From a virus: a DNA stretch of 60,585 bases. The stretch lies in IMG/VR virus record IMGVR_UViG_3300028195_000002. One strand, given 5' to 3'. Numbering within the stretch: the first letter of the stretch is position 1; the number at the start of each line of letters is the position of its first letter. The notes under the pieces are model-generated. The model saw nothing but the letters and a program-made list of their open reading frames with translations. It was not told the origin of the DNA and searched no databases. The position numbers and the translations under genes are program-made. Shown here one piece after another: positions 16,601-52,278 of this stretch.

Positions 16601-19600
16601 TTGGCAAAAGCCTTAAACGTCTCCAAAAGGGAATGGTCCCCTTCATACCACAAGTCCCTTTGAGCATTAAACTTGTGATCGTTTTGTTTTCTTATTACGT
16701 TCCAAAGGCGCTTGTATGCTCCACCAATCTTCTCAGCATTATACATGGTCGTTTTGAAAATGTGCGCCATGGCGGATATATCTTCATTATAATTTTTACC
16801 CTTGTCTTTTCTGTGTTTGATAAGCCCAGTATAAAGATCCGTGGCTTTTTGGATGAAGGTGTCTTCCTGTTCTTCATATTCTAAGTCTGCTGTGGTTTGG
16901 AATTTTCCCTCTTTAGAACCTTTTTGGGACGCTTCACGCGAAAAAATACCACCGCTTTCAACTTGTCTGGCCATCTTTCTTTCGGTCATGCTGGCTATAT
17001 GGAAAAACCCGTCAATTATGTCTGCAATCTTCTGTAAAATTTTACCGATTGCAGTACCTCGATATTGCTCCCGGTCTTCAAGGAGTTGCGCCAGGGCATT
17101 GACCCTGTTTTCCTCTTTATCCTTTCCAAGCTTAAATCTAAGCTGCCCTTTTTTCTTTAATGCTGCAATCTTTCCGTCAAGGACGAATAAATCAGATTGC
17201 GTCAGCATTCCATTGTCAATAAGGAAATGGCCTAACTCATGGTCTCTGGTAAAGTTGCTGGCAAGGTCTTTATTCAGGGTGATCGTATCCCTTTTATGCT
17301 TACCTAGAATAATGCCATCCTTGCCCATTCTGCCGGTTTCAATGGCAAACTGTGTATCGCCTTTGCCCATATCATTTGTGCGGACAATACGCAGGCCATG
17401 GCCATTTTTAAGGCGAATTGATATCTGCCCGTCTTTGGATATAAAAACTTTTTGGCCTTTAAAGCGGGATTGAATATCTTTTAAGCTCACGCCCTGGCCG
17501 GGGAGTTGATCTGTGGAGAAAACAGACGTATCTACTTGTCCTTTCTTTTTATCATAAATGGAAGAATCAACCCATATGTCATCACCCGGGACGTAAGATA
17601 TTGCACCTTCATCCTCCAGCCTCCGCCACATTTTTGTGGGGATCTTCCTGCCGGTCCAATTAGCGTTTCCTTTATTGTCAATATATGCAAGTCCACTTTC
17701 TTGGTCCCGGATACCCTCAAGAATCTCTTTCCTGGAAAGGGGTTTTATATCATCGGATGTGGAGAGTTTTGTAGGAGTGTCGTTGTCTTCTGTATCAGCT
17801 TCTCCTATCCCCAATTCTTCGGGAGAGACTTCTTTGCCTTCGTCTTCAAGCTCTTTTTCCAAGGAGCGCAACTCTTCATGCTTTTCATTCAGCTCTCTAA
17901 GATTTTCAAAGGGAAGCCCTATAAGTTTTTGGGCACGTTCGTTTTCTTCTGTCTTGTCCTTGATCTGCCTTTCCATCGTGGAAATTGCAGAGGGTATCCT
18001 GTTTAACATATTTAAAGATTTGGTAGCGATATTGGAATCATCAAAATATTCATTAAACCTGCCCTCATAAATTCTGGATTCACCAATTATATCAGAGAAC
18101 CCGTTCACAATTCCGAGACTGGCTGTCATTTGAAATTCTTGCCATCCCTTTTCAATGACAACGATAATTTTTGCACCATTGATATCTGCTATTTCTACCT
18201 TTTTGGCCGCCTTAAATTTCCCATCTTTCGTCATGACCGCTTTTTTAACGGCGACTTTTAAGGCCTGGTTAAAATCTTTTTTATTGTCAAATTTCTTTTT
18301 ACCAATGGTGGCATCAAGTTTTGATATGTATTCTGGAAATTTTTCTTGAGCTTTTTGAAGGGTCTTTAAACGTTTTTCATACCGCTCTATATCCCACCCA
18401 TTATCTTTTATGGACCTGGCTATTACCCCCTGATTCCGTCTATGTGCAACTGAAAGAGTTTCGAGCCTTTTCACATCTGCCTGGAGGCCAACCATTTGGA
18501 TTAATCTTTGATCACCCGAAGCTAATGCCGAGGCCATGGCATACTGTGAAGTTTTTGAAACATCCTCTATGGTTCTGACTCCCTTTTCTCCTGCCCAAGC
18601 CTGCTCAATAAATCTGGATTTTCTGGCGACCATTTGCCACATAGTAGAGTCATAACTACCCTCTGTCGCATACCATTTTATAGATACTTCTTCATTCTGA
18701 TTGCCCTGTCTGACAATGCGACCTTGTGGTTGTTCAACGTCTGCCGGGAACCATGGCGGATCAAGATAATGAAGATTCGTTAATCGTGTCTGAGCATTAA
18801 CACCCGTCCCCATTTTTTTTGCAGATCCAAGCATGATTCTCTTTTTGCCTTCCCTGACAGCCTTAAAAAGCCCCTGTTTTTTTTCTGCGGTATTATAATC
18901 GTCAATCCATGCGACATGGCTTCCAGGTATTCCAGCCTCAGTGAATCTTTTTGTTGCCCAGGCCCTGGCATTAAATCCCCTGGTTGCTGCAACATTCTTC
19001 CCAAACCCGACATTATAAAAACAAATAATCCCACCGCCAGGAACAATAGATTTTTTTTCTGACCCGGGGAGAAGGTATTGATTATCTTTTGTCTCTTTGT
19101 ATGATTTGATAATGTCATCAATATATTTATTAAGCTTGCTGTCCGGGTTACTCTTTGCCCCATTCTCCACAAACCGGATATCAATTGCCGCCAGCCTGCC
19201 GTCTGTGATTATATTGATAAGAGGGTCAGGATTGCCGGGTTGTTCTTTTGACGGTTTCCATTTTCGACTTGTTTCTATCCTTGGTTGCAAAACATTTGTC
19301 TGGTATTCTAATAATTCCGGCGTTTTTGATGTCGCCACTATCTCAGGGGAACCGCCTTTAATTTTTGGTCTTTTTACCCTTGTGCCAAGTTGCTTACTTG
19401 TCAGGACATCCGTGAATCGTCTTACTCTGGACATCATTTCCGGAATATTCACAAACTTTGAAAACCTTTCAACTACTTCATATCTACCTGCCGAATTCAT
19501 TTCATAGTCAGATGCCACCAGACCGAACATGCTGGCCCATGCGTCAAAATGCTCAAGCCCGTCACTATCAAGCCCGTTGCGATCGAAAAACCTGTTTATG

Positions 19601-22600
19601 GTATACATTTCACCAATTGTATTTACAATCGGTGTGCCAGAGGCAAACACATGGGACCGATCTTTATTTATGCTTGAAAGCCAAAGGGTCTTAATATAAA
19701 GATCAATGGCCTTTTTTGATCCATTGGTATCTATGCCCTTTACCCGACGGTTTGTTGCAAAATCAAGCTTCCTGAATTCATGTGCTTCATCCACAAACAA
19801 AAAGTCTATACCCATATCTTCAAAGGAAACGACATCATCCCCTTCTCCTATCAGAGAATCAAACCTTTGTTCCGCCTTTTCGATCATTGATTCCATTTTC
19901 TTTATTTTCATTCTTGGAGCATCTTCGTCCTGCATAGTTTCAAGGGCATACTCCATATTGCCGATAAATTCTTTTCGGACAGGTTTGATATTCTCTTCGT
20001 TTGATTTGATAAGATTGAAAGAAGAGTGTGTCATGATGACGGCATCAGGACTATTTAATGTTGCCTGGGAAACAAAGTTTTTTCTATTCTCTTTTTTAAA
20101 ATCCACTTCATCTGCCACCATAATATTAGCCATGGGATAAAGCTCCTGGAATTCCTGCGAAAACTGCCCAAGCATATGGTTAGGTACAACATACATAGGC
20201 TTCCTAACCATCCCTAAGCGTTTCATTTCCATTCCGGCAGCTATCATAGTAAATGTCTTTCCTGACCCGACTGCATGGTTCAAGTATGTATTGCCGGATT
20301 GAATGATTCTCCAAATAGCATCTTTTTGGTGTTGATAAAGAGATATTTTTGTCGTGACCCCGGGCAAGGTTAAATGAGAGCCATCGAACTTCCGTGGGGC
20401 CAGGTTGTTATATTTTCTATTGTATAAGTCAAGGAGCTCTGTTGATCGTTCCATATCGCGCCATACCCATGAAGAAAATTCTTTTCTCATTTTGCTGGCT
20501 TTTTCGTTGGCTTCAGTAGTTGCCTCTTGGTCGACGATTGTTCTTTTCCCGCCATCCGCCGTTTCAATAGCTGCAGTGATCCGGATAGGGTTATTATTGA
20601 CAACGGCCATAAGAATTTCGTTCTTTCCTCTAGCGGTTGTGCTCCAATCGTCAGACGCACTTCTTAACCCCTGGGCTGCCCCTCTGTAATCTAAACCCCA
20701 TGTACCGATTCTTTTGTCATATGACAAATTAGCGGACCTTATACCTAATACGTCCCTGGCAAATTCATTATAGTATTTGGAAGGTATCCATGTCCCACCC
20801 ATCATGACGGAAATATCGCTTGATGATAACGGGTCCGGCTGAACGGCCTTTAATGCTTTTACATTCCTTTGGTATTCAGGGTCCAGTTTCACTGCAAGAG
20901 TTGCCTCTTCAAGCTTTGTGACGACATCCCCAGATAAATATTCATCAGCAAGGACATATTCCTCGTTATCGGGGGCTTTATATATCAGGTCCCCAAGGAC
21001 TTCTAATGTTTCTTTTGCAGGCTTGCCGGCCAATTCCGCAACATGGTCAAGATCAAGGTGCCCTATGCTGTTCAAGGACACTGCAAGGGCATCCGGCACT
21101 GTTTTGATTTTTGGAGTAACTGGCCGCATGATGGTCCGGTCCTTGAGGATGGACGATTTTACAATATTCCCATCATCAAGAATCTTTTCAAGCTGCCATA
21201 CGAGGGTGTATTCTGCGTCATGCCTAAGCGTACTCTTTTTCTTATATCGACGTTCTTCAACCTTCTCTTTAGTGCCATCCTCATTTTTAACCGTTTTCCA
21301 TGCGGAATTATATGCATGAATATTCCCATGTTTTTTAACAAATTTTTTGTATTCCCCTTGAAGATCCTTTAGGGCCGCTTTCCAATCGCCATCGTTTAGC
21401 TGTGCATGATGAGAAAGTTTGATTTTGTCCCTTAACCCGATACAATCTTTAAGCATTACAGCGTCCCGTGCTGATATTTTTTTACGGGAACTTAATGCAA
21501 CGCCTGATCCAAAATTAACCTGCATAAGAGTTTTGTCATCTTTTCCGATATACAGGCCACCTTCTTTTTTGTTCTTTGGATTAAAATCCCTCTCTATTAT
21601 TTCCTTGGCATCGTGGACGGCTTTTTCTTTTGCAGTGGTAGCAGAATAAATTTTCTTTGGAAGTCTTTTTATTGCCTTCCCGAAATGGTCTTCGATATCT
21701 CCATCCAAAGGCATAACCGTATATTCATTTTTGGAATACATTTTCCCGGCCAATGAATTTTGCCCCAGGACCATCTCAGGGTGTTTCTTGAAATATTCAT
21801 TAATCTGGACATCTTTATCATTCCCAAGAGAATCTTTTAATGTTATTCCTGTGGTCCCTGCCCATGCTTCTCCGGATGGTTTTGTGTTTTTCTCTCTTTT
21901 CTTTAAAAACAAGACATCGGTAACGACGTCGGTCCCGGCATTCTTCTTAAAGGCTGTCTGTGGCAACCGGATTGCGCCCACAAGATCTGCACGATCCGTC
22001 ATATACTTTCTTGCCCTGTCATTGACCGCATCCATTGTATATCTACTGGTGACAAAAACAAGCAATCCTCCCGGACGAACCCGGTCAATTGCTTTTGCAA
22101 AAAAATAATTATGGAGAGAAAAAGAATGTTTTCTATATTCCGGGTCCGCAAGAATGGGGATACTGCCAAAGGGTGGATTGCCTATAGCAGCATCAAAGAA
22201 GTTTTTAGGAAGAGACTGTTTGGTAAAATCTGCCTGCATAATATTCTGATTCGGATAAAGCAGCTTTGCAATGCCAGCAGAAACGTGATCCATTTCAATG
22301 CCGGTATATTTTGAATACTTTCTCATTTTTTCAGGGAGAAGACCCACAAAATTACCGACACCCATACCAGGCTCAAGGATTTTGCCACCCTTAAAGCCCA
22401 TGTCATTAAGAGCTTTATAAATAGATGTTATAACTTTTTCGCTTGTGTAATGGGCGTATTGTGTGCTTTTCGCTGCGGTTTTGATCTCTTCCGGCGTAAG
22501 AAGTTTGGTCAACCGGGTAACTGAATCTTTCCACTCATAACTTGCCCAATTTGGCAAAACTTCTTTTTGTTGGGCATACCCAGGAAACATATTGTTGGCA

Positions 22601-25600
22601 AGTTCTGACGAACCCCACCCAACATATTGAGCAAGAATTTTTTGTTCGTTCTGTGTGGCAAATCTCTTTTCTTCTACAATTTTTTTATACAGGGCTATGG
22701 CAGCGAGGTTGCTTTCAGCCGTTTTTTTCCAGCCTCCGGAACGATCTATGCTTCCGGGCTCGATTCGGTGATCTCTTCCTCGTCGCTGAATTCCAGATGG
22801 TTTGCCAGAACTTCCTCCCACGCCTGGTGTAGCCCCGTCTCCATCGCCTGTACTGCGCTTTGAAGATTTTCGTTTTCCGGTGGATTTGTCCTGCACGTCA
22901 TCAACACTTGATCGCTCACCTGATCGTAATCCTCCATCAACGCTTTTTCCGTCTGCGTCAAGAATTGATTCAGGCCCATTGTTTTCTTTAGCTGCAGGAA
23001 CGTCTTCGGCGCTTTTGCTTCCAGGGCTTGAGATATCATCTTCTTTCTTTGATCCTGATACACTTGCCCTTCTACTGTTATCGGCATTACCATTTTCTAT
23101 GTCCTCCTTGGTTTTAACTCCATCATATTCCTCGGTTACTTCTTCGTCAACCCATCTGTGAAAATAAGGGGTCGCTTTATGAGAAAGATTTTCAATTGCC
23201 ACTGCCACAAATTCAGCAATTGATTTGCCCGTATCCTTGGCATGACCCCATGCTGAATTCAGCCGGTCCTTGACCTGGGCATAAATATTTTCATCCAGTT
23301 CCTCGGTAGAAAAAGAACCCCTTTCCCCAAAAAGGGCATTGATGGCCTTGAAATCATCCATCATCTTCCCGGCGCTTTCTTTTATTTTATCCTTGGCCGC
23401 CTTTATTTTCTCTTTATCTTTCTGGGCCTGGGCCTGCTTGTCCCATTCTGCTTTCAGCTTTTCTTTTGTAGTGGGTTTCTTCTCGGGCTCTGATTTTGCC
23501 TGGGGTTCGGGTTGGATGTCTCCGACGGTTTCCTTTATATCTTCATTTATTTGATTTTCTTCTGCATCAAGAGCCTCGACACCGGTGGTCTCATCTATCA
23601 AAGAAACAAGCCCGTCCCGATCAGTCCACGCCTCTTTGGCTTTTTTATAATCAATCCGCCCGCCATCTATAAGCCTTGCTGCATATTCCCTTGCTTTTAT
23701 AAGGTTTCCTCTCCAATCGGAAGGCGGTTCATAACTATCGACAAAGCCATCGATTTCTTCTGAAGTTAACATCTCATAGCTTTTCTTTTCAAAAAGGGTG
23801 TCAAGAGAATCAAATGTCGAAACCCCGCCGGGGACAAGCCTTCCCTTTTGATGAACAATAATGCCGGGGGAAGCTTCATAAGACCTCATGCCATCTTTAT
23901 CTTGATATACGTTTTCGCCGTCTTTATTTTTTCCGACAAGAGAGGTTGTGTCTTTTGGTATCCCCTTGTTGCTTTTGGGTTCGGTCCCTTTCTGTTCTTC
24001 CTCAATACGGTCATATTCGGCTTGAACATTTTTATTATAATCAGGGTCAGCAAGCTTGGTTTCTTCTTTTTTTGCCTGATCTAACATCTGAAAGGCTTCA
24101 TTTTTATATTGAGGAGTGACGCCTGAAACGTCGATATCATACTTTTTGAATTCTGTAATTTCTTCGGCTTTAAAAAGGGCCTCGCCTTTGGCTTCTGGTT
24201 TTTTCTTTTTATCATCAGCAAAAAAAGAATCCATTGCATCAAGCATTTCTTCTTTTGTCTGCTCAGGCTCTTCCTTCTTCACAAAAGGCTCTTTAATCAG
24301 AGTCTCCCGCCCGGTATCATCTTTTTTGACCCGCCAGTTTTTCCCCTCTTTTTTCACAATGGTTCCAGATTGAACACCTTTTGTTTTGGTATCCCAGGAA
24401 ACGGCCTGGCCAACTTGAAAGCCGTCAACCTTTTTATCCGGACTATGGGCATCAAGGGGTTTAGAGTTTTTAAAAGAACCATCAAGGCCGCCGGCCAATG
24501 GCTTTTTAGTCCTCTTTCCGTCTTTGACCCAACCCCTGAAAGTCTCTGTATCCATTTCAGTGATTTCCCCAAAACCATTCCAGCCCTTCTCATAATTGGA
24601 CAGATACAAGTCTTTGGCTTCTTTGGCTGATTCAGTCCCCATTATGACTTTATGCTCATCAAACTGGCCCTGCTCATTCACCTGATCTACAACGAACACC
24701 TTGGGGCTTGTTTCTGTTTTCGGCTTTACAACAACGTCAACTTGATCACCATCTTTCCCAAGAGTTCTTTTGAAATATCCATAGTGGCCGTGCATTTTGG
24801 ATTCCCACTTTTTGCCGGATTTGTTTGTCCCTTTTCTTACAGATCCATCCGGGTTTTCAATGGAGATATCAAAGTTATCTATCTTAATATGGACTTTCTT
24901 GTAATTCCCGGCTTCTTTCTGTGCATCTGTCGGATCTGTCTCGACCTCTTCTGGGGATACCTCATGTTCAGGACCAGGCTCCTTGGGTTCCGGTTTCTTT
25001 CTTTGCTGGATGATAATGCCTTCGTCTGTTTTTATTGCTCTATGTTCTACGTCAACAAACCCTTCGTCCATTTTTTTGGCTTCTTGCTTTCCACCACCCA
25101 GTGTGGTTTTTTCTGATACGGCAAGAGACGCCCATTCTCCACTATCAAACAAGGCTTTTTGCTTTTTATCATATCTGCCCCAATCTTCGCCTCTTTTCGA
25201 TACTTTTTGAGTAGCAGGAGTAGTCCTTTCTTCTTTTCCCTCTATATCGGCCTGTTTTGGGCTCATAAAAGGATCGTCTTGACCCACCATTGCGTTTATG
25301 GCATCAATCTCGTTTTGTTGATCAATCTCGCCTTGCGCGATAATATGGGCTTGTTCTTCTTCCGATATCTCCCTTATTGGTTCCTGAGGTATGGATTGTG
25401 TTTCTACATGGGGCGCTTCTGGTTTTTTCTGAACAGGCGGCATAAAGGCATTAAGATTTTTTACGGACTTGTCCTCGATATCCCCGAGTTCTTTTTTTGT
25501 ATCTTTTGCCAAAACATTGAAAGCATTTTTTAATCTCGGATCATCGGCTTGGACTTCTTCTTCCTCAACAATGGGAATACTACCCCCAGGTTCATCGTCT

Positions 25601-26628
25601 GCAGTCGGCGGCGGATTCTTTTTCTCTTTTATCCCGGATATTACACCATGAGGCACAGCACCCATAAAACCGCCAACGGCACCAGCCCCGGCGGATTCTC
25701 CAATTCTTAAAAAATTATCCTTGGTCAATAATTTTTCATCAGTGTTGGCAACAACATTGAGGATGGCAAATGTTTCCTGCCCGGCTTCCTGCAATGCCTC
25801 TGCCGGCATGGTCTTTATTAATTGTTTGGCAATGGCCTTTGTGATACTGCCTTTTCCGTTTTTAACGGCATCAAACATGGTATCAATCAGCCTGACATTA
25901 CCACCAGTAAATTCAAGGGCGGTCGCAAGGCTTCCAAAAAAGACGGCGGACCACGGAGCCTTTACTCCATGCTCGTTTCTAAGCTCCCCATACATACTGC
26001 CGGTTTCAAGAGGAAATATGCCTGCCGCGACACCGGTCTTGGCGCCTATCTTTGTAGCTTGCTTTTTAATGCCTTTTTTAATAGCAACTTCCATGCCCTG
26101 TTTTATAAACTGTTTTCCGGCAACTAACCCGGCTCCACCACCCAGAACAGAGCTAATGGCAACCCCGCCCATTATAGGGACAAGGTCTGCCCCAGTGCCC
26201 AAGATCCATCCTGTCTTACTGTCTGAAAATTTATCTTTTGGGTGAAGGGAGGCTTCATGCTCATGTTCCTTATACCCTTCCATGCCAAAGCCTTGGATCG
26301 CTTTTCCGGTATCTTCAGCCCCCATGTTTTGCAAGACGTTACCGCCAAGAGCCGCCATACCATATGTAGAACTTGCAATACCATGGGCGCCACGAACAAC
26401 GCCCCTTTGGACATCTCCCATGTTCTGCTCGTTAAAGTTCCGGGTAACAACATCCTCATAATCGGTTTTCTCCATTTTAAGGATATTCCGGTTTATATCG
26501 GCATCTGTGAAATTATTCTCTTTTAAGGAAGCATAATCCTTTTCAGTATACCCATTCTCATTCAAGAGATACTGAGCGATCTCGCTTTCAGACATTTCCT
26601 TTAAGGCTGATTTTAAGTCAAAAGGCAT
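13603..26628 (-). CDS. Giant 4,341-aa polyvalent virion/ejected protein (DarB-like N6-adenine MTase + SNF2 helicase core, zincin motif, hydrophobic termini)
   Basis: A single uninterrupted ORF of 13,026 nt. The sub-features below list the motifs. It has Gly-rich hydrophobic segments near both ends and sits among structural genes. Confidence 0.85.
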   Translation of the reverse strand: MPFDLKSALKEMSESEIAQYLLNENGYTEKDYASLKENNFTDADINRNILKMEKTDYEDVVTRNFNEQNMGDVQRGVVRGAHGIASSTYGMAALGGNVLQNMGAEDTGKAIQGFGMEGYKEHEHEASLHPKDKFSDSKTGWILGTGADLVPIMGGVAISSVLGGGAGLVAGKQFIKQGMEVAIKKGIKKQATKIGAKTGVAAGIFPLETGSMYGELRNEHGVKAPWSAVFFGSLATALEFTGGNVRLIDTMFDAVKNGKGSITKAIAKQLIKTMPAEALQEAGQETFAILNVVANTDEKLLTKDNFLRIGESAGAGAVGGFMGAVPHGVISGIKEKKNPPPTADDEPGGSIPIVEEEEVQADDPRLKNAFNVLAKDTKKELGDIEDKSVKNLNAFMPPVQKKPEAPHVETQSIPQEPIREISEEEQAHIIAQGEIDQQNEIDAINAMVGQDDPFMSPKQADIEGKEERTTPATQKVSKRGEDWGRYDKKQKALFDSGEWASLAVSEKTTLGGGKQEAKKMDEGFVDVEHRAIKTDEGIIIQQRKKPEPKEPGPEHEVSPEEVETDPTDAQKEAGNYKKVHIKIDNFDISIENPDGSVRKGTNKSGKKWESKMHGHYGYFKRTLGKDGDQVDVVVKPKTETSPKVFVVDQVNEQGQFDEHKVIMGTESAKEAKDLYLSNYEKGWNGFGEITEMDTETFRGWVKDGKRTKKPLAGGLDGSFKNSKPLDAHSPDKKVDGFQVGQAVSWDTKTKGVQSGTIVKKEGKNWRVKKDDTGRETLIKEPFVKKEEPEQTKEEMLDAMDSFFADDKKKKPEAKGEALFKAEEITEFKKYDIDVSGVTPQYKNEAFQMLDQAKKEETKLADPDYNKNVQAEYDRIEEEQKGTEPKSNKGIPKDTTSLVGKNKDGENVYQDKDGMRSYEASPGIIVHQKGRLVPGGVSTFDSLDTLFEKKSYEMLTSEEIDGFVDSYEPPSDWRGNLIKAREYAARLIDGGRIDYKKAKEAWTDRDGLVSLIDETTGVEALDAEENQINEDIKETVGDIQPEPQAKSEPEKKPTTKEKLKAEWDKQAQAQKDKEKIKAAKDKIKESAGKMMDDFKAINALFGERGSFSTEELDENIYAQVKDRLNSAWGHAKDTGKSIAEFVAVAIENLSHKATPYFHRWVDEEVTEEYDGVKTKEDIENGNADNSRRASVSGSKKEDDISSPGSKSAEDVPAAKENNGPESILDADGKSVDGGLRSGERSSVDDVQDKSTGKRKSSKRSTGDGDGATPGVGGSSGKPSGIQRRGRDHRIEPGSIDRSGGWKKTAESNLAAIALYKKIVEEKRFATQNEQKILAQYVGWGSSELANNMFPGYAQQKEVLPNWASYEWKDSVTRLTKLLTPEEIKTAAKSTQYAHYTSEKVITSIYKALNDMGFKGGKILEPGMGVGNFVGLLPEKMRKYSKYTGIEMDHVSAGIAKLLYPNQNIMQADFTKQSLPKNFFDAAIGNPPFGSIPILADPEYRKHSFSLHNYFFAKAIDRVRPGGLLVFVTSRYTMDAVNDRARKYMTDRADLVGAIRLPQTAFKKNAGTDVVTDVLFLKKREKNTKPSGEAWAGTTGITLKDSLGNDKDVQINEYFKKHPEMVLGQNSLAGKMYSKNEYTVMPLDGDIEDHFGKAIKRLPKKIYSATTAKEKAVHDAKEIIERDFNPKNKKEGGLYIGKDDKTLMQVNFGSGVALSSRKKISARDAVMLKDCIGLRDKIKLSHHAQLNDGDWKAALKDLQGEYKKFVKKHGNIHAYNSAWKTVKNEDGTKEKVEERRYKKKSTLRHDAEYTLVWQLEKILDDGNIVKSSILKDRTIMRPVTPKIKTVPDALAVSLNSIGHLDLDHVAELAGKPAKETLEVLGDLIYKAPDNEEYVLADEYLSGDVVTKLEEATLAVKLDPEYQRNVKALKAVQPDPLSSSDISVMMGGTWIPSKYYNEFARDVLGIRSANLSYDKRIGTWGLDYRGAAQGLRSASDDWSTTARGKNEILMAVVNNNPIRITAAIETADGGKRTIVDQEATTEANEKASKMRKEFSSWVWRDMERSTELLDLYNRKYNNLAPRKFDGSHLTLPGVTTKISLYQHQKDAIWRIIQSGNTYLNHAVGSGKTFTMIAAGMEMKRLGMVRKPMYVVPNHMLGQFSQEFQELYPMANIMVADEVDFKKENRKNFVSQATLNSPDAVIMTHSSFNLIKSNEENIKPVRKEFIGNMEYALETMQDEDAPRMKIKKMESMIEKAEQRFDSLIGEGDDVVSFEDMGIDFLFVDEAHEFRKLDFATNRRVKGIDTNGSKKAIDLYIKTLWLSSINKDRSHVFASGTPIVNTIGEMYTINRFFDRNGLDSDGLEHFDAWASMFGLVASDYEMNSAGRYEVVERFSKFVNIPEMMSRVRRFTDVLTSKQLGTRVKRPKIKGGSPEIVATSKTPELLEYQTNVLQPRIETSRKWKPSKEQPGNPDPLINIITDGRLAAIDIRFVENGAKSNPDSKLNKYIDDIIKSYKETKDNQYLLPGSEKKSIVPGGGIICFYNVGFGKNVAATRGFNARAWATKRFTEAGIPGSHVAWIDDYNTAEKKQGLFKAVREGKKRIMLGSAKKMGTGVNAQTRLTNLHYLDPPWFPADVEQPQGRIVRQGNQNEEVSIKWYATEGSYDSTMWQMVARKSRFIEQAWAGEKGVRTIEDVSKTSQYAMASALASGDQRLIQMVGLQADVKRLETLSVAHRRNQGVIARSIKDNGWDIERYEKRLKTLQKAQEKFPEYISKLDATIGKKKFDNKKDFNQALKVAVKKAVMTKDGKFKAAKKVEIADINGAKIIVVIEKGWQEFQMTASLGIVNGFSDIIGESRIYEGRFNEYFDDSNIATKSLNMLNRIPSAISTMERQIKDKTEENERAQKLIGLPFENLRELNEKHEELRSLEKELEDEGKEVSPEELGIGEADTEDNDTPTKLSTSDDIKPLSRKEILEGIRDQESGLAYIDNKGNANWTGRKIPTKMWRRLEDEGAISYVPGDDIWVDSSIYDKKKGQVDTSVFSTDQLPGQGVSLKDIQSRFKGQKVFISKDGQISIRLKNGHGLRIVRTNDMGKGDTQFAIETGRMGKDGIILGKHKRDTITLNKDLASNFTRDHELGHFLIDNGMLTQSDLFVLDGKIAALKKKGQLRFKLGKDKEENRVNALAQLLEDREQYRGTAIGKILQKIADIIDGFFHIASMTERKMARQVESGGIFSREASQKGSKEGKFQTTADLEYEEQEDTFIQKATDLYTGLIKHRKDKGKNYNEDISAMAHIFKTTMYNAEKIGGAYKRLWNVIRKQNDHKFNAQRDLWYEGDHSLLETFKAFAKKHKEEYAEIKEYLTQRDIEKKGFLVKKDNDEFTLLHWKKKNGVRKIIGTYGTKEAAWEDGVLIEAEESGFSPEGQEALIAFRKMSHNLYHHFAINLEESIAAYEKAGQPLPQITIQTEEGVTQIDLRAAAERMGDLRGSYFPRLRNSGKWRVIGHKKGSAKQMQFFDTRRLPGGANAYRAGLERKGFKTEIEKVGKLSEDLFQSLEPLLAQQQILNKAMKDISNEGKQRILEDANIKAKWEGDTFILYGALKDDIEESVRHLGGKFKERWLKNTYRPEIAFEDIEGQDPYEFEQKVTSAILHSGGLEVDMDLAFADAMVKQYDAILKGRGARSRMLARSDSIGMDVVQGYELDPVTAITSAMQAAAGSKAKAIIAKEGSAAISGRDIKWKDFKEEKKGPVEDLEGDLAELNLNSPADEKLKGDLLKQLQGLRRDLESNFNPTPNYIITKQRQIKKIQDKLKTLGKWSDVSKARKIQQNITQAKTGLYEEYLALVDKRKLDAKTQAVAHKEATAALKDILRNEEFADRVLGVVKGVAVWQYLGLRVSSAAVNVTNMAFGVPAAMNGETDNQVSLKKAIGHIVRSMKNFSLHRANKLEGEQKNVFDEIKLKGWDAPVFNREAFDVLSSKLGKGWNWALEKSMWMFGKAEELNRASTIAATYFAMKEVHKGEWDHAAMMEKSKEISDKAHGDYSKANRPYQMRGGNLAGRVLQASYVFHTFEHNYMQEMFRLGWDKKQYKAAAYMAFAPAIFGIGATLPIGVAKAISNVLGGDDPEEGLIKLAESSFGMGDIARNGIMGIGDHGVNLRGSLATRFGVPSAFYDIFGAPGSVVADWIEGGKNITKGHFQEGFEKMAPAAIANISKGIRESTTGVTTRTGSPVFWGREQLKGDTIDMILRMLSFNPTNVSTKKEIQWGEYKTQTRYRTKKSEIIKRFKAAMNKTIEKRSRHDILKIKADIRDFNSEIRDKKLTRLGLLITEKSIKDAMRRNVKAPKRERLRDL
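17227..17241 (-). other. HEXXH zincin metallopeptidase motif (HELGH) in the giant protein
   Basis: DHELGHFLI at about aa 3129-3137. Confidence 0.4.
18500..20400 (-). other. SNF2/SF2 helicase domain of the giant protein (approximate bounds)
   Basis: Motif I AVGSGKTF (20251-20274), motif II DEAHEFRK (about 19768-19791), ASGTPIVN, and motif VI QPQGRIVRQGNQ (18697-18732). Confidence 0.7.
21700..22650 (-). other. N6-adenine DNA methyltransferase domain of the giant protein (approximate bounds)
   Basis: SAM motif ILEPGMGVGNFVG (about 22343-22380) and catalytic GNPPFG (22165-22179). It is preceded by the QYVGWGSS segment typical of N12-class/DarB-like methylases. Confidence 0.7.
24637..24909 (-). 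other. Inorganic-pyrophosphatase-like segment within the giant protein (approx. aa 574-664)
   Basis: HYGYFKRTLGKDGDQVDVVV resembles the family I PPase core NYGYI..TL..DGDPVDVLV. An upstream IENPDG and a downstream DEHKV are also present. Confidence 0.4.
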
Positions 26629-30114: not shown

Positions 30115-31341
30115 TTATTCCCCTGTTGCTATCCATTTAATTTCTCCGGCTGCTTCTTGGCCATCAGGGGTGAAAGTATATCCAACATTTAAATTTTCTA
30201 ACAATTGATTAGTGGTTATACTGTTTTCCCACGCAAGGGCATAAAAATTTGCTGTAAAATACACATCATGAACACCCGATGTAACATCTATTACCTCGTT
30301 GGACCAATCCGATATAAGAGTATATGGATCTGTATTGTAAAGTGAAGTCCATGTTTTTGTTGCAATTTGAGTACTGTCTCCGTCAACCACTGCAAATACC
30401 ACTATCCTTAATCCATGAATATACCCATTGCCGGACTCAGATGCCTTGCCGGATAGTATAATTTGGGTTGTATTTGATGGAGATGTGACTGTTGCCGATG
30501 TAAGTGTTTTAACTAATGTTTCATGGTTCCAATAGAGCATTCGTGTATCAGTGCCAGACACAATAGCTACTGGATCACTAAAAACCCCGGCACTGGATGC
30601 AATCAACAAGCATTTAACAGTGAAGCGCCATCGCGCCGATGAATATTCAGTGATATTTTCTGCATTACATTGCAATACTTGATCCACGCCATAAGCGGCA
30701 AGGGCAACACTGTATGTTTGGGTTGATTTTGGAATAACATCTACTTTCGGAATTTCTTTAAAATATCCAGGAATATTAATAACATCATCATGTTCGCCAA
30801 CACCTTCTTCCCGTCTTTTCAGGCTTTTATATTGAACATGAGTGGAACCTATCCAATAATAAAAATCAATATCTCCGGCATCAATGCGGCAATAATCACC
30901 ATTTATCAAATTGCCAATGTTGATCTGGCTACCAGCATATATCTTGCCACCATCAATCATAGTGGTGTCGGAACCATGCCTAATGTCTGCATCATTCGTG
31001 GCTCCCGGTTCGCTCCAAGCTTCCGTATAAGCCTGGGCGGCATCAGCCTTGGCCTGAGCATCAGCTATGGCCCTTGCTTCTTCAGCAGTGACTATTCCAT
31101 CTGCGTAGGCTTTTGCAATTACTTCTGCCAGATGCGCCTTGGCTGCCGCCAGAACACTAACGGACTGTGCAACAGGCATTAACGACCCGTCAGGCCTGAC
31201 AGTCTGGCTTAAAATCCCAGCTTCTTTGGAAGAATAGACTTTGATTTTAGTTAGCGTAATTGGAACTGATCCGGCAGACCATGCTTTAATGGAATTAACA
31301 CCCTGGATCAAGGCCGATGATGGCAATGCAAGATAAGGCAT
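30115..31341 (-). CDS. Tail fibre/receptor-binding protein paralog (shared N-terminal anchor domain)
   Basis: 408 aa. The N-terminal roughly 60 aa are homologous to those of 35111-36268 and 36268-38274. It shares the AYADGIVTAEEARAIADAQAKADAAQA module with 35111-36268. Confidence 0.6.
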   Translation of the reverse strand: MPYLALPSSALIQGVNSIKAWSAGSVPITLTKIKVYSSKEAGILSQTVRPDGSLMPVAQSVSVLAAAKAHLAEVIAKAYADGIVTAEEARAIADAQAKADAAQAYTEAWSEPGATNDADIRHGSDTTMIDGGKIYAGSQINIGNLINGDYCRIDAGDIDFYYWIGSTHVQYKSLKRREEGVGEHDDVINIPGYFKEIPKVDVIPKSTQTYSVALAAYGVDQVLQCNAENITEYSSARWRFTVKCLLIASSAGVFSDPVAIVSGTDTRMLYWNHETLVKTLTSATVTSPSNTTQIILSGKASESGNGYIHGLRIVVFAVVDGDSTQIATKTWTSLYNTDPYTLISDWSNEVIDVTSGVHDVYFTANFYALAWENSITTNQLLENLNVGYTFTPDGQEAAGEIKWIATGE

Positions 31342-31342: not shown

Positions 31343-31753
31343 CTATAATCCTATTTTCTCTTTTTCTGTCCGGCCCCAGGCTCGGCAGCTTTCAATATGC
31401 TCTATATATTCCTGGCACTCGGCTCCCTGGGCAAGCTGTCGCAACATTTTCATTTCATCATTTTCAGAATATTTTTTTCTGATTTTTTCCACCACCCGGG
31501 TATTGATCAAGCGCATGTGTGGAGATACAGCAGAAATTTCCGCCCTCATTTCATCCGTGAGCACAATCGATTCCATGGTGACATCCATGTCAAAAGGTTG
31601 TTCCGGTAAAACCATAGAGTCAGGCACATGCACATATGTGTCATCTCCAATCGTGCACAATTCTGTTATACGCTGGGCATCTTCTTGGTAATCCGGTTCA
31701 ATAAGCGTACGTGTTGTATAATCGTCGATAATTTTTTGGTATTTTAATATCAT
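31343..31753 (-). CDS. Hypothetical protein between RT and fibre gene
   Basis: 136-aa ORF. It overlaps the RT 3' end by 56 nt and abuts the fibre gene start. Confidence 0.4.
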   Translation of the reverse strand: MILKYQKIIDDYTTRTLIEPDYQEDAQRITELCTIGDDTYVHVPDSMVLPEQPFDMDVTMESIVLTDEMRAEISAVSPHMRLINTRVVEKIRKKYSENDEMKMLRQLAQGAECQEYIEHIESCRAWGRTEKEKIGL

Positions 31754-32711
31754 TTTTAACCTCTTTTAAGATTTTAAGCATGTATGGCAAAGAATTGGTA
31801 TATTTTGCATGGCCAAGGATAGACGCGACAGCCGCCTGATCACTTTTTTTGACCATGCGTTTAAATTTATAAAGACTGAATTTTCGAATAAATTTTTTAT
31901 TTTTCCAGGTGCGGTACCCGACAAAGTTCAAACCCTTTTTGACTTTTTGGATGGTTGATTTTGAAAGCCTTAAGACCAGGCCATCCTTTAAAAATTGAAT
32001 AATTTTTTCCCGGAACAAAAGACATTGATCCCGGGTGATGCCAATCAAAATAAAATCATCCACATACCTGACATAATGTTTTATTTTCAACACCCGTTTT
32101 ACAAAATGATCAACAGGGTTCATATAAAGCAGGGCATAAATCTGGCTTAAAAGGTTGCCTATTGGGATGCCGTCCGGAGCATCTATAAAAGCAAATGCCA
32201 TCATAATATCGACAAATCGTTTGTCCTTGATTTTTCGTTCTATCAATTTTCTGAGAATATTCCGATTGATAGAATAAAAAAACTTTCTGATATCAAGTTT
32301 TAATGTGTATTCATCCCCTGAGCAAGATTGCAAAGCCCTTTGTGTATAAACACAAGCCTTGTGGGTACTCATACCCTTACGACAGGCAAAAGACGTATTG
32401 ATAAAAGTACGATCAAAAATGGAATATATAACTCTATAAATGGCATGTTGCACCACGATATCCCGAAATGTTGGCGCATAAATCAACCGGTCTTTTGGCT
32501 CATACACTTTAAACGTCCTGTATGGTGCCGGTTGATAAATGCCGGAATGCAATTCTTCATGCAGCATGGCAAGGTTATTACCCAGGCTGACCTCAAAATT
32601 AAAACAAGCCTGTTTTTTTCTTTTCCCTTTTCGGGCATCCAGATACGCCTGATACAGATTTTCTGGAGTAAATGCTATTTCAAATAAATTCCCGATCCGT
32701 TTCAATTTCAA
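31698..32711 (-). CDS. DGR reverse transcriptase
   Basis: YVRYVDDFILIG (YxDD), PIGNLLSQIYALLY (the DGR-type IGxxxSQ motif), and a GNLFEIAFTPENLYQAYLDARKGKRKK N-terminus. The likely start is TTG at 32711 or 32705 after GGAGAA. The track ORF extending to 32984 runs through the TR. Confidence 0.85.
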   Translation of the reverse strand: MKLKRIGNLFEIAFTPENLYQAYLDARKGKRKKQACFNFEVSLGNNLAMLHEELHSGIYQPAPYRTFKVYEPKDRLIYAPTFRDIVVQHAIYRVIYSIFDRTFINTSFACRKGMSTHKACVYTQRALQSCSGDEYTLKLDIRKFFYSINRNILRKLIERKIKDKRFVDIMMAFAFIDAPDGIPIGNLLSQIYALLYMNPVDHFVKRVLKIKHYVRYVDDFILIGITRDQCLLFREKIIQFLKDGLVLRLSKSTIQKVKKGLNFVGYRTWKNKKFIRKFSLYKFKRMVKKSDQAAVASILGHAKYTNSLPYMLKILKEVKNDIKIPKNYRRLYNTYAY

Positions 32712-32844
32712 TTCTCCGTGTTTGGCGCATCTGGTCTTCGAGCTATTAAATCCTACCAAAAAGATGCTGCCTATTGATTTCGCATAATGCAGGAAAGACA
32801 CATCCCTGTAATTCCACTTTCTCGTATTTGAGTTTGAGGATTTG

Positions 32845-32957
32845 CAGTCGCAGCGGAACCCAACATTGTTGTTCGAATTCGTACGATAATTGTTCCAATT
32901 CGAATTCCAAACCCCGGCATTCGAACTGTTGTTCCAATTCTCGCCGGATAGCACACA
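32845..32957 (-). repeat. DGR template repeat (TR)
   Basis: Aligns to 33414-33526 at a constant offset of 569 nt. It contains 12 AAY codons, and I counted 30 sense-strand adenines in 32845-32949. Confidence 0.85.
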
Positions 32958-32974
32958 TTTTGAGGCGCTTCCCT

Positions 32975-33370
32975 TTATTTCCATTGTTGTTCTTCTTTTA
33001 TTTTTTTTATCCAGCCGCCAATCATTTTACCCAGCTCATCTATGAGCCTGGAAATTGCGGCATGCCTGACCCGTTCAAGCTGGCCCGGGCTTTTTTCTGA
33101 TTTTTTACCATCTTTAAAGCGGAAATATCCCAATTCAGCGGCCAGATAAATTTGCATTCTTAATTTTTCATGGGCAATATCCAGGTTGGTGAGCGTGGTC
33201 TTTTTAAAATACCTTTTTTGGCCCTCCGTGATATAATCATATACCTCATATGCAGTGCTCCTTATTCTATTTGCCAAGGCATATTTTTCAGCCTTGGGGA
33301 AATGGTTCAGATATACATTCAGCAATTTTGCTGTTTCCATAAATTTTCTATTTAAGCCTGGCTCTGACAT
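32975..33370 (-). CDS. avd: DGR accessory variability determinant (Avd, four-helix-bundle protein)
   Basis: 131 aa, basic and predicted helical. It occupies the canonical position between the target gene and the TR. Confidence 0.7.
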   Translation of the reverse strand: MSEPGLNRKFMETAKLLNVYLNHFPKAEKYALANRIRSTAYEVYDYITEGQKRYFKKTTLTNLDIAHEKLRMQIYLAAELGYFRFKDGKKSEKSPGQLERVRHAAISRLIDELGKMIGGWIKKIKEEQQWK

Positions 33371-33385
33371 TCAGTTTCCTTTAAT

Positions 33386-33401
33386 GGGCACTATCGTGCC
33401 C
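33386..33401 (-). promoter_or_regulatory. GC hairpin immediately 3' of VR (GGGCAC-GATA-GTGCCC on the sense strand)
   Basis: Perfect 6-bp stem with a 4-nt loop; its 5'-most sense-strand base (33401) is the last base of the target-gene stop codon (TAG, 33403-33401). Analogous to DGR target-recognition hairpins. Confidence 0.6.
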
Positions 33402-35107
33402 TATACAGGGTAACAGGCGCAGCGGAACCCAGCACTGTCGCTCGAATGCGCACGATAATAGTACCAATACGAATTCCAAACCCCGGCATACGAACTGTAG
33501 CTCCAAGCCCCGCCGGAGCGCGCACAGAGTTCATTGGTAATCTTTTGATAAAAATAATCTTTCCCGAAAATGTTGGCGCCAGTGGTGTCCACTCCGCCTG
33601 AGTCTTTTGGCACACCAAGACAGGTCAGTAAAAACGGGTTCCCGCTTACAGCTTCAGACAGCACTTGATTAGCACCTGACCCCATGCGCTGAGCAAAACC
33701 ATTGCTGGAATACCCGGTTTCAAACATCATATCAAAGGCATCCATCATGGCAGCCACGCCGGTTGCGCCCCAGTGATCAGTTGACAATGAATTGCCACTG
33801 GTAAAATCTTTCATGGCGGCTGCGTCTTTGGCTACGTAAAAATCACCAACAGTTGCCGAGCCCCCGGATGAATATGCAGCGAACGCAGTTGAGTCAACTC
33901 CATCCAATGTAAAATTATCCGCATCAACAACAGTGATTGTAAAAATTTTGTCATTAATTTCTGTCATACCACCAACGGACGTGATCATAGCGGGATCACC
34001 GGTTGCCCTTCCATGCCCTACTGCTGTTATCTTACAGGGGTTTGCGTTTGTTGCAGCAGTGATTGTTTTGCCGGCCGCTATGCAGGTAACGCCGATCATA
34101 ATTTCATACATTAGCCCATTAAGATCTGCTACCCCGCAGGCCTGGCCGTTATGGGTTGTTTTTGCAAACGGCACGCCGGACCCGGTCTTCCCGCAGTTTG
34201 AATATCCATCGCTGGTATAGGACACATTTCCATCATCTGTGTCACCAAGAGCGTTGTCATTACACCCCTTTGGATAATTATAAGTTGCGTCATACCATGC
34301 ACAATAAGTGGTTGCTGTTGCGGCCTGGCCGTGTGCCATGGAAAGAATAGCAAGGGCAGAATTGATAAATTGTGATTTTACAAAGAAGATCGAACTTGCA
34401 TTAACAGCCCCATTGACCCCATCCCTGGCATGGGCAGCATTAATTGCTTCATAATAATAATTACCCCCGCAGGCTGTCAGATCAGCTATGGGATTATGCG
34501 TTGACGCGGTCGATATAGGCAAGCCAGAGGCAATAGAGCTTGCAATATATCCCGTGCCCCAGGCGCGTTTTGAACATTTATATTTATCAACAAAAAACCC
34601 AATCTGCTCATTATTGTCATCAATAAAAGCACGGTGCAGTGCATACCCGGCAGAGTTCGCCTCCGCAGTTGAACCAAAATAGCTGGCTGGCTTTACATCA
34701 ATAACATTAATATCCAAGCCATTCGATCCTGTACCGATTTTATAAAAAAACTTTGGCACAAACACCATGACTGATCCGTCTGGGTATTGATAATTACCAT
34801 AATTATTATTGGCAACATCATCATATCCAGCCATGGGTGTCATGCCGGTTGGCAAATAGTCCTCCGGACAAATACCAACACCAAACCCGGCTGCGCCTGG
34901 TGTACCTATTTCCATAAGCGGTCCGGTTAATTCGGCAAGGGTGTGCGTGTGATCTTCCCTGGCTGCTGGAAACCCGCCAGCAGTCACTCCGTCATGGACC
35001 ACAAGGGCTTTCTTTGTGGTGTCAACGGTAATTTCCTTGTTTATACCTGTAAAGCTTGCATGTTCCGTGGTTGTGCCACCCCGGCGGGCTATTGCTGTTC
35101 CACTCAT
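33401..35107 (-). CDS. DGR target protein, Mtd-like receptor-binding protein with C-type-lectin-fold VR
   Basis: 568 aa. As I recall it, the N-terminus (RRGGTTTEHASFTGINKEITVDTTKKALVVHDGVTAGGFPAAR) closely resembles the Bordetella phage BPP-1 Mtd N-terminus. The C-terminus ...GVWNSYWYYYRAHSSDSAGFRCA is the VR. Confidence 0.8.
   Translation of the reverse strand: MSGTAIARRGGTTTEHASFTGINKEITVDTTKKALVVHDGVTAGGFPAAREDHTHTLAELTGPLMEIGTPGAAGFGVGICPEDYLPTGMTPMAGYDDVANNNYGNYQYPDGSVMVFVPKFFYKIGTGSNGLDINVIDVKPASYFGSTAEANSAGYALHRAFIDDNNEQIGFFVDKYKCSKRAWGTGYIASSIASGLPISTASTHNPIADLTACGGNYYYEAINAAHARDGVNGAVNASSIFFVKSQFINSALAILSMAHGQAATATTYCAWYDATYNYPKGCNDNALGDTDDGNVSYTSDGYSNCGKTGSGVPFAKTTHNGQACGVADLNGLMYEIMIGVTCIAAGKTITAATNANPCKITAVGHGRATGDPAMITSVGGMTEINDKIFTITVVDADNFTLDGVDSTAFAAYSSGGSATVGDFYVAKDAAAMKDFTSGNSLSTDHWGATGVAAMMDAFDMMFETGYSSNGFAQRMGSGANQVLSEAVSGNPFLLTCLGVPKDSGGVDTTGANIFGKDYFYQKITNELCARSGGAWSYSSYAGVWNSYWYYYRAHSSDSAGFRCACYPV
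33414..33526 (-). repeat. DGR variable repeat (VR) at the 3' end of the target gene
   Basis: 113-nt alignment with the TR has 19 mismatches. Sixteen are at TR adenines. Three are not: TR positions 32863, 32950 and 32953. Confidence 0.85.
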
Positions 35108-35110: not shown

Positions 35111-36268
35111 TTATAATCCTCCATATTCATAAGATCCTGTGCCATTTGCCATGGCCAGGTCAATATACTCAACTTCGGGTTCATCGGAAAAAACAAAACC
35201 CGTGTCTATGTCTCCGTAATCGGACGTGTTTACTATTCTTTCGACAGTTAAATGACTGTCATTCAGGGCTATTTCCAGAACACCATCTCCCTCATATTCA
35301 ACAAACACCAAACTCCCATCACAAAAAATTTCATCAACAGAAAATTCCCATTCATCGGCCCCGTTAATGTCTGTACTCAGGGGCACCACATGGCTTGCGG
35401 TCAAATCATAAACCTTCATTGCATCAGCAGCGGCAGTAACTTCAGCGGCAGCCTGGGCAGCATCCGCTTTGGCCTGGGCATCTGCTATGGCCCGGGCTTC
35501 TTCATCAGAGACAATTCCGTCTGCGTAGGCATCAGCTCTTGTCTGCTCAAGAACATCCTGGGCGACGGCATAAGCGTTGGCAGCGGCTTCGGCAGCATCA
35601 GCTTTGCTTGTTGCATCAGCAGCGGCAGTAACTTCAGCGGCAGCCTGGGCAGCATCCGCTTTGGCCTGGGCATCTGCTATGGCCCGGGCTTCTTCATCAG
35701 AGACAATTCCGTCTGCGTAGGCATCAGCTCTTGTCTGCTCAAGAACATCCTGGGCGACGGCATAAGCGTTGGCAGCGGCTTCGGCAGCATCAGCTTTGCT
35801 TGTTGCATCAGCAGCGGCAGTAACTTCAGCGGCAGCCTGGGCAGCATCGGCCTTGGCCTGGGCATCTGCTATGGCCCGGGCTTCTTCAGCAGTAACTATT
35901 CCATCCGCGTAGGCGCTGGCAGTAATTTCTGCCAAATCAGCTTTTGCCTGGGCCGCCTCTATGGCACGGGCTTCAGCCTCTGTCACCATTCCGTCAGCAT
36001 AAGCCCTTGCTTTGACTTCGGTTAATGTGGCCTGTTCTGCGGTTATAGCTCTAATTATCGGCGTGGATTGCTGATTTGATATTGCCGGGGATTGAGCGTT
36101 TGTGGACAAAGATCCATCTGAATTAAACGATTGGTTTAATAAACCAGCCTCTTCAGATGTGTATACTCTAATTTTTTTAATTGTGCCGGAGACACCACCA
36201 GTAGACCAGATTTTTAAACTATTGGTTCCAGCCACCAATTCTTTTGCTGTAATCGCTTTCCAGGCCAT
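35111..36268 (-). CDS. Tail fibre paralog with Ala-rich tandem repeats
   Basis: 385 aa with the shared N-terminal anchor domain, 2.4 copies of a 64-aa repeat, and the shared C-terminal roughly 100-aa domain. Confidence 0.6.
   Translation of the reverse strand: MAWKAITAKELVAGTNSLKIWSTGGVSGTIKKIRVYTSEEAGLLNQSFNSDGSLSTNAQSPAISNQQSTPIIRAITAEQATLTEVKARAYADGMVTEAEARAIEAAQAKADLAEITASAYADGIVTAEEARAIADAQAKADAAQAAAEVTAAADATSKADAAEAAANAYAVAQDVLEQTRADAYADGIVSDEEARAIADAQAKADAAQAAAEVTAAADATSKADAAEAAANAYAVAQDVLEQTRADAYADGIVSDEEARAIADAQAKADAAQAAAEVTAAADAMKVYDLTASHVVPLSTDINGADEWEFSVDEIFCDGSLVFVEYEGDGVLEIALNDSHLTVERIVNTSDYGDIDTGFVFSDEPEVEYIDLAMANGTGSYEYGGL
35421..35890. repeat. 192-bp tandem repeat, about 2.4 copies
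   Basis: Units start at 35421, 35613 and 35805. The first two are nearly identical and the third is partial and diverging. Confidence 0.85.
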
Positions 36269-51681: not shown

Positions 51682-52278
51682 CTACCTCATTTCAATCTCA
51701 AGAGGTATTTTGTCAAAATCTCCAAGCAGGTTACAATTCTCGCTGGCCAAAGGGAAAGCCTTCCTGATTGACCTGATGACAATCGACGTATCTCTTCTGG
51801 CTTTTTTAAGATTGTCTTTCACAGCTTCATACTCAACCAAAGCTTTTTCAATGTTCCAGAACGTATCCATGGTGGCCTGGAGGAACGATGCCACGGCCAG
51901 GGGTGATATTGCATCACGTCGGGTTGGTTCCTGGATATATGCCCCTGTTTTGCGGATCTGGGGCAAAACTTCAGATGTTACCCATTTGCGGAATTTCTTG
52001 GCCTGGGGTTTTCGGGATCTCATGATAAGAGAGTATAGGCCGGATTCTGAGATAATTGTTAATCCCTGTTTCCCACCAAGGGTGTCGGTTTTAACTATAC
52101 CCTTTTCATCATCTTCTAACATTTTGATTGCATGTCTTGGGTTTTTAATGTCAAGCGTCTTACAAACGTCAACATTAACAAACCAAACTGAACCGTCTGC
52201 TTTCTGAATGGTTCTAACTTCATGGTATGTGCTGTTCTTAAATTGGAAGGTAAATACTGAAGTGGATTGATCTTTCAT
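51682..52278 (-). CDS. Bro-N domain protein (antirepressor-like)
   Basis: 198 aa. VWFVNVDVCKTLDI, GLYSLIMRSRKPQAKKFRKWVTSEVLPQIRKTGAY is the classic Bro-N signature. Confidence 0.75.
   Translation of the reverse strand: MKDQSTSVFTFQFKNSTYHEVRTIQKADGSVWFVNVDVCKTLDIKNPRHAIKMLEDDEKGIVKTDTLGGKQGLTIISESGLYSLIMRSRKPQAKKFRKWVTSEVLPQIRKTGAYIQEPTRRDAISPLAVASFLQATMDTFWNIEKALVEYEAVKDNLKKARRDTSIVIRSIRKAFPLASENCNLLGDFDKIPLEIEMR

Follow-up and report, generated by a model that had tools for sequence, protein, structure and literature searches.

The prototype of the diversity-generating retroelements (DGRs) is that of Bordetella phage BPP-1, whose components follow the order mtd-avd-TR-brt: a target gene, the accessory variability determinant avd, the template repeat (TR) and the gene for a reverse transcriptase (RT). 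This arrangement, target-avd-TR-RT, is classified as architecture B1 and is the commonest DGR layout (Wu et al. 2018, PMC5758913), while both the activity of DGRs in metagenomes and their use of phage tail fibres as targets are already established (PMC8144416). In BPP-1, the DNA hairpin at the target site was defined as a 5'-GRNA loop on a stem of 7-10 base pairs (bp), located 4-34 bp after the variable repeat (VR) (Guo et al. 2011, PMC3240598). Cryo-electron microscopy of the BPP-1 ribonucleoprotein (RNP) has further described a template:primer duplex between the TR and the spacer (Sp), which ends where the priming adenosine, Sp A56, pairs with TR U118; an avd:Sp "cPRT Stop" duplex, two nucleotides downstream of the priming site; and a stem-loop followed by A-minor adenosines (bioRxiv 10.1101/2023.10.23.563531). 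The present work concerns a viral DNA of 60,585 nucleotides (nt), IMG/VR record IMGVR_UViG_3300028195_000002, the whole of which is referred to here as the window. It almost certainly carries a complete and currently active DGR of the BPP-1 architecture (target-avd-TR-Sp-RT), situated in the tail-fibre block of a podophage.

All components of the element are encoded on the minus strand. They comprise a target gene of 568 amino acids (33401-35107), within which the VR occupies positions 33414-33526 and terminates 13 nt short of the stop codon's last base; avd, of 131 amino acids (32975-33370); the 113-nt TR (32845-32957); a structured spacer of 139 nt (32706-32844); and an RT of 335 amino acids (31698-32705). 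The gene order is the same as in BPP-1, as an initial annotation made from the letters alone had proposed, and the spacing agrees with that of the prototype almost nucleotide for nucleotide. In both elements the VR is found at the 3' end of the target, a gap of approximately 30 nt precedes avd, and the TR lies at the avd stop codon; the spacer before the RT measures 144 nt in BPP-1 and 139 nt here, and the RT has about 330 residues in both. The spacer had initially been taken as roughly 130 nt long; its presence was rightly noted, and its length becomes 139 nt when the RT is started at the TTG codon at 32705.

The repeat pair provides the clearest mark of the mechanism. A repeat search of the window returned a single 113-nt direct repeat, with 83% identity and a spacing of 569. 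When the TR, which contains 30 adenines and 12 AAY codons, is aligned with the VR without gaps at a constant offset of 569 nt, 19 of the 113 positions are mismatched on the minus strand. Sixteen of these fall on TR adenines (7 A>G, 5 A>T and 4 A>C); with 30 adenines in 113 nt, at least 16 such mismatches among 19 have a hypergeometric probability of 8.2e-9. The remaining three are located at TR thymines (32953 T>C, 32950 T>G and 32863 T>C, corresponding to VR positions 33522, 33519 and 33432). The re-alignment thereby reproduces the coordinates, offset and counts of the initial annotation, and all 16 adenine sites listed there are indeed mismatches; one of them, TR 32848 (A>C), is shared by all VR alleles seen and is better read as a fixed difference between the initiation of mutagenic homing (IMH) sequence and its TR counterpart (IMH*) than as the product of mutagenesis. 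A recount of the codons in the target frame likewise agrees with the earlier one, in that 11 of the 12 AAY codons are changed in the VR, where they encode Y, S, H, D or A. The VR is thus placed as in known DGRs, at the 3' end of a coding target with stop-proof AAY codons: none of the codons reachable by A-to-N changes in the TR is a stop codon, and the theoretical repertoire amounts to approximately 3e16 peptides. No further VR-like copy or second target was found in the 60.6-kb window.

The same pattern is reflected in natural variation. The comparison set consisted of 12 genomes, namely the window, two IMG/VR contigs and nine further metagenome contigs. The additional alleles were found by an exact-protein look-up of Avd, whereas a degenerate TR pattern searched against metagenome contigs gave no match. 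The 11 other contigs encode an identical Avd and share 99.0-99.8% identity with the window over the aligned stretches of the DGR region. One of the two IMG/VR contigs, L001, can be aligned with the window without gaps over 8,879 nt, in which there are 26 differences; 21 of them are concentrated in the 113-nt VR, and the TR is free of them. Of the 21 in the VR, 18 occur at TR-adenine positions, and the other three are the three non-adenine mismatches of the window, at which L001 carries the TR base. Across the 12 genomes four VR alleles were distinguished, while the TR was identical in all 11 genomes from which it was extracted (the TR of contig L077 was not compared). Taken together, the four alleles differ from the TR at 68 positions, 64 of which are TR adenines, and 28 of the 30 TR adenines vary among them. 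Judged from these sequences, the VR shows recent, repeated and adenine-specific rewriting, with a constant TR, as is characteristic of a DGR. The adenine-directed mutagenic retrohoming proposed in the initial annotation is thus supported, indirectly, by consensus contigs.

The layout also extends to more distant elements. Among 43 related RT loci, with RT identities of 26-100%, 40 display the same organization, and the three exceptions are contigs that end just upstream of the RT. In the 40 loci the VR is found some 170-750 nt (typically about 570) upstream of the TR, the TR lies approximately 140 nt upstream of the RT, and 85-100% of the VR/TR mismatches occur at TR adenines.

The DNA elements that accompany a DGR target were also identified. 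The VR and TR share GGGTTCCGCTGCG (33418-33430) as their last 13 common bases, which form a GC-rich, IMH-like end, after which the two copies diverge. Twelve nucleotides after the end of the VR begins a hairpin, GGGCAC-GATA-GTGCCC (33386-33401, minus strand), whose first base is the last base of the target TAG stop codon. Its GATA loop fits the 5'-GRNA rule (PMC3240598), and in the relatives the four-nucleotide loop is GATA, GGTA, GAGA or GACA, carried on GC-rich stems which differ in sequence and remain complementary. A GC-rich IMH, its divergent TR counterpart (IMH*) and, downstream, a hairpin with a GRNA loop are thus all present, as expected of a DGR.

The spacer, in turn, is composed of invariant blocks and covarying helices. 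Its 5' part pairs with the 3' end of the TR, and the anchoring pair of this TR:Sp duplex, U32846:A32807, is invariant (25 of 25 sequences); the next one or two positions are non-canonical and are followed by covarying pairs, with AT in 13 and GC in 10 sequences at position 3. Directly 3' of A32807 lies the spacer strand of a second duplex (32792-32804), which pairs with an upstream strand that comprises the 3' end of avd together with the bases immediately preceding the TR (32962-32974). This avd:Sp duplex, of 12-13 bp, occurs in every relative and has a mean energy of -19.4 kcal/mol, compared to -11.7 for shuffled spacer segments. In an alignment of 22 relatives, 91.7% of the cells of the avd:Sp helix are paired, and compensatory changes are seen in 8 of its 12 pairs. 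Over the RNA helices as a whole, 81.7% of the cells pair versus 44-50% with slid partners, and the covariation score of 0.474 compares with 0.07-0.10 for the slid controls and was reached by none of 500 shuffles. The TR:Sp helix is under-counted in this alignment, in which MAFFT placed GACT one column off at the TR end in seven sequences; the anchored count given above is the better estimate for its pairs. The remaining elements of the spacer are an apical hairpin (approximately 32821-32833), a stem-loop followed by GCGAAAT (32777-32790) and a 3' domain closed by the pairing of 32763-32767 with 32727-32731, all on the minus strand. No known RNA family was detected in the DGR region by an Rfam scan. 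A local spacer hairpin called by RNAalifold, GGGAU...UUCC, was superseded by the avd:Sp duplex, for which there is far more covariation, and the two may represent alternative conformations.

By analogy with the BPP-1 RNP, the 32962-32974 strand corresponds to that of the "cPRT Stop" avd:Sp duplex and A32807 is the candidate for the priming adenosine. For cis-primed, adenine-mutagenised synthesis of complementary DNA (cDNA), the expected RNA helices are conserved and covarying, and such synthesis would presumably proceed as follows. An RNA running from the 3' end of avd through the TR and across the 139-nt spacer would fold around a complex of RT and Avd, the role of the latter being assigned here from the prototype. 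Pairing of the spacer with the avd 3' end would create a stop or positioning duplex, while its pairing with the TR 3' end would create the template:primer duplex in which A32807 is positioned to prime the cDNA. The RT would then copy the TR faithfully except opposite adenines, and the product would replace the VR under the guidance of its GC-rich IMH-like end and of the GRNA-loop hairpin downstream. The outcome would be a recoding of up to 12 Asn (AAY) codons and five other codons in the lectin-like tip of a single fibre protein, through which the receptor specificity, and hence the tropism, of the phage may change.

Both of the proteins that would carry out this process are recognizable. Avd matches the Pfam family bAvd (PF22296) with an E-value of 1.2e-15 and 58.3 bits, above the cut-off of 40, in agreement with its first assignment as a 131-residue avd, and it adjoins the TR in the manner of architecture B1. 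The RT contains the Pfam domain RVT_1, and its best match among solved structures is the BPP-1 bRT (8ub7, E = 6.8e-50), compared to 1.1e-20 for the best group II intron RT. The two motifs initially reported, YVDD and the DGR-type IGxxxSQ, were located at residues 214-217 and 182-188 (IGNLLSQ), equivalent in numbering to the catalytic D215/D216 and to I181/G182/Q187 of bRT. The enzyme can therefore be assigned, on sequence grounds, to the bRT-like DGR clade. The list of open reading frames (ORFs) and the public gene calls present it as a longer protein of 428 amino acids (31698-32984), whose ATG overlaps the avd stop and whose frame runs through the TR. Homology to bRT begins only at residue 95 of this ORF, the TTG at 32705 is homologous to the [A/T]TGAAACG starts of the relatives, and the upstream frame is not conserved; on these three counts the RT most likely begins at TTG 32705, which gives the 335-residue protein and the 139-nt spacer. 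Translation of the TR as an N-terminal extension of the RT was considered and rejected: only 3 of 28 relatives keep an open frame across the TR, and the 428-residue frame is open there by chance.

The target protein combines domains of different affiliation. Pfam recognizes an Mtd_N domain (7.9e-10, residues 9-42) and an E1_FCCH domain (4.8e-8), the latter an inserted beta-barrel at residues ~340-425 of a C-type-lectin-like body that ends in the VR-encoded C-terminal tip. In sequence, the match to the PDB entry of Mtd is confined to target residues 3-56 (Mtd 2-55, E = 7.7e-14), and no significant match was found past target residue 56. An AlphaFold2 model built with 52 homologues has a predicted local distance difference test (pLDDT) score of 82 and a predicted template modelling (pTM) score of 0.85; the placement of its first 61 residues is poor, and confidence is intermediate for the VR-encoded tip (pLDDT 57-86). 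The top Foldseek match of this model in the PDB is TaqVP of Thermus aquaticus (5vf4; E = 8.9e-10, probability 1.0, target-normalised TM score 0.55). The next matches are ubiquitin-E1 FCCH domains, which cover the inserted barrel. With TaqVP, a protein with a C-type-lectin fold, as the closest structure, the variable residues are predicted to be carried on a C-type-lectin-like fold, as in other DGR targets and in line with the tip proposed in the initial annotation. The description of the protein as "Mtd-like" holds for the attachment domain of the first ~55 residues (Mtd_N) and for the logic of the system; the body is TaqVP-like with an FCCH insert, and neither the intermediate domain nor the C-type-lectin domain is of the Mtd type. 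The target belongs to a very large family: of the 8,000 candidates scored, at least 2,677 proteins reached E <= 1e-5.

Several observations weigh against a complete and active DGR. The stem of the target hairpin has 6 bp and is thus one bp short of the range of 7-10 bp in phage DGRs. Avd scores 68.2 bits against the NCBIfam equivalog DivGenRetAVD, below its cut-off of 80. Foldseek finds Mtd itself (1yu3) only weakly (E ~0.01, probability 0.10), such that the C-type-lectin domain of the prototype target is a poor structural match. The avd:Sp helix of the window contains one bulge and one mismatch and is the weakest of the family, at -13.8 kcal/mol versus a shuffled mean of -10.6. The turnover of alleles is seen in consensus contigs, several of which share an allele, so that it amounts to four independent alleles rather than twelve. 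Finally, changes at bases other than adenine occur in two of the four alleles: the three described above (T>C, T>G and T>C) in the window and L079, and a G>T at VR position 63 in L074, L075 and L078, which converts a conserved Trp to Cys. These may be low-frequency errors of the RT or later point mutations. The small number of alleles in 12 contigs would also suit a relic, i.e. an element with intact sequence that no longer mobilises and whose VR differences date from an older active period. Such a relic is nevertheless very improbable, given a VR with 21 differences in its 113 nt when the other 8.8 kb have about 5 substitutions, a TR that is identical in every contig extracted, and the integrity of all the ORFs and catalytic motifs.

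Other explanations dispense with the retroelement altogether. Ordinary paralogy or gene conversion would have the two copies diverge by mutation or diversifying selection, with no reverse transcription involved. Fibre tips are often under diversifying selection, and three or four of the changes are indeed not at adenines; yet the A positions of the non-coding copy, 27% of the total, account for 64 of the 68 differences and coincide with codon positions 1 and 2 of AAY, the non-coding copy never changes, and the same pattern recurs in 40 related loci. Paralogy with random substitutions, which the initial annotation had named as a possible refutation, is contradicted by this adenine bias, and such an origin is scarcely credible. 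An equally slight probability attaches to an RT of another class (group II intron, retron or a DRT/Abi defence RT) that stands beside a repeat by coincidence. The best NCBIfam match of the RT, below threshold, is a group II RT/maturase, weak matches to Drt3a and to retrons also occur, and several GenBank relatives are annotated as "retron-type" or "group II". The match to bRT, however, is 30 orders of magnitude better than that to any group II RT, no maturase or endonuclease domain was found in the protein, no intron RNA was detected with Rfam, and in 40 of 43 relatives Avd lies next to the TR. In addition, the IGxxxSQ motif occupies the site at which a motif of the group II type would be expected. 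An active DGR, rather than a relic, a paralogous repeat or a chance neighbour, therefore accounts best for the locus.

The genome in which this DGR resides is that of a Bcep22-like podophage of approximately 60.5 kb from an anoxic (oxygen-depleted) marine inlet. An exact direct repeat of 127 nt is found at both ends of the window (1-127 and 60459-60585), which marks the genome as complete, assembled as a circle and about 60.46 kb long. The window codes for terminase, portal, major head, internal virion and tail-fibre proteins, and the portal protein (47305-49392) exhibits 28-30% identity to those of Bcep22-like podophages (Bcep22, BcepIL02, DC1 and POI1126), whose genomes are of similar size. 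There is no close relative among isolated phages: a megablast search of the 5-kb DGR region against GenBank phages gave no match. A target protein 97% identical to that of the window is labelled as belonging to a metagenome-assembled genome (MAG) of Desulfobacula; the contig in that MAG probably represents the phage's own genome, and the label was not relied upon as evidence of the host.

The neighbourhood of the DGR is rich in fibre genes. Three of them share a common N-terminal motif and an Ala-rich repeat region, whereas the DGR target has Mtd_N instead. In the fibre gene at 35111-36268 (minus strand), three tandem repeats of 192 nt (35419-35994), each encoding 64 Ala-rich residues, are present, and near-identical genomes contain forms of 385, 321 and 257 amino acids, equivalent to three, two and one repeat copies. 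The length of this fibre thus varies in the population, independently of the neighbouring DGR. It is conceivable, though on balance unlikely, that these observations belong to one joint reading, in which two independent mechanisms, mutagenesis of the tip by the DGR and gain or loss of a 64-residue coiled-coil repeat, vary adjacent fibres; in which the DGR may have a relaxed template specificity, as is suggested by the non-adenine changes in two of its four natural alleles; and in which the covarying avd:Sp and TR:Sp helices serve as an independent comparative test of the BPP-1 cis-priming architecture. On the other side of the DGR, an ORF of 136 amino acids (31343-31753, minus strand) overlaps the 3' end of the RT by 56 nt and is called in all the related contigs. 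It has no match in Pfam or PHROG and may form part of the downstream fibre gene (30115-31341). A compensating 9-nt insertion and deletion was observed inside this ORF in one of the contigs (L002).

Further afield, the minus strand codes for a giant protein of 4,341 amino acids (13603-26628), which matches PHROG families of DarB-like antirestriction proteins, DNA methyltransferases and helicases and contains a transglycosylase/endolysin-like segment at residues ~555-715. This DarB-like protein resembles the giant virion-associated proteins carried by Bcep22-like podophages. Four genes flank the genome ends (57485-58753, 58839-60332, 161-616 and 648-1451, all on the minus strand) and encode two DNA methyltransferases, a nucleoside deoxyribosyltransferase-like protein and a thymidylate-synthase-like protein. 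These genes, together with the giant protein, suggest a heavy investment in anti-restriction or DNA modification. A C4 antisense RNA (52333-52419, minus strand; Rfam, 63.8 bits, E = 4.5e-10) is followed directly downstream by an Ant anti-repressor gene (51682-52278, minus strand), and the two constitute an immunity-like module of the P1/P7 type. No integrase or other lysogeny gene was found among the ORFs scanned; the initial description of the phage as temperate is thus left with this module as its sole counterpart in the genome.

Compared to described elements, the DGR itself is already known. In the catalogue of Roux et al. 2021 (PMC8144416), the RT cluster Meta_3300022888_Ga0233428_100044527 comprises 17 members, listed as viral, with the environment Aquatic:Inlet and the target Phage_struct:PC_00002. 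The cluster includes genes on scaffolds Ga0233440_1000357 and Ga0233446_1000317, which are the contigs L074 and L078 of the present set; across the DGR their identity to the window is 99.1-99.2%. The supposed novelty thus applies to the genome, with respect to isolated phages, and not to the retroelement. The catalogue entry is a table row, which gives neither alleles nor cis elements, RNA structure or genome context. To this the present work adds a comparative data set, in which a complete genome is joined by four natural VR alleles and by some 40 relatives whose DNA-hairpin and RNA helices covary, and one more well-resolved natural case of a phage retargeting its tail-fibre tip, from an oxygen-depleted marine inlet. 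Since the architecture, the fibre targets and the activity in metagenomes were all established, no new question is opened; the case does illustrate that a DGR can be identified correctly from a first inspection of the raw sequence.

The closest RT from an isolated phage is that of Pseudomonas phage Bise (OR683401), with 58% identity over 98% of the length, and Bise is a different phage of 38 kb. The relationship of the target to TaqVP lies in the structure of its body. Both proteins are DGR-diversified, TaqVP being designated a DGR variable protein in its PDB entry, yet their sequences are only 13% identical, TaqVP is cellular according to the name of that entry, and it aligns to neither Mtd_N nor, probably, the FCCH insert of the target. 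With BPP-1, finally, the element shares, apart from its order and spacing, a target beginning with Mtd_N, a GRNA-loop hairpin which overlaps or follows the TAG stop codon, and YxDD and IG...Q motifs at the same residue numbers as in bRT. The two differ in most of their particulars: the RT is only 36% identical to bRT; the TR has 113 nt with 30 adenines, compared to 134 nt with 23 adenines in BPP-1; the hairpin has a 6-bp stem with a GATA loop, compared to 8 bp with GAAA; the 568-residue target, with its TaqVP-like lectin body and FCCH barrel, departs from the architecture of Mtd; and the phage, a Bcep22-like podophage of ~60 kb, is unrelated to BPP-1. Across this distance the covariation in the spacer, together with the approximately 40 relatives, supports the generality of the cis-priming model derived from BPP-1.

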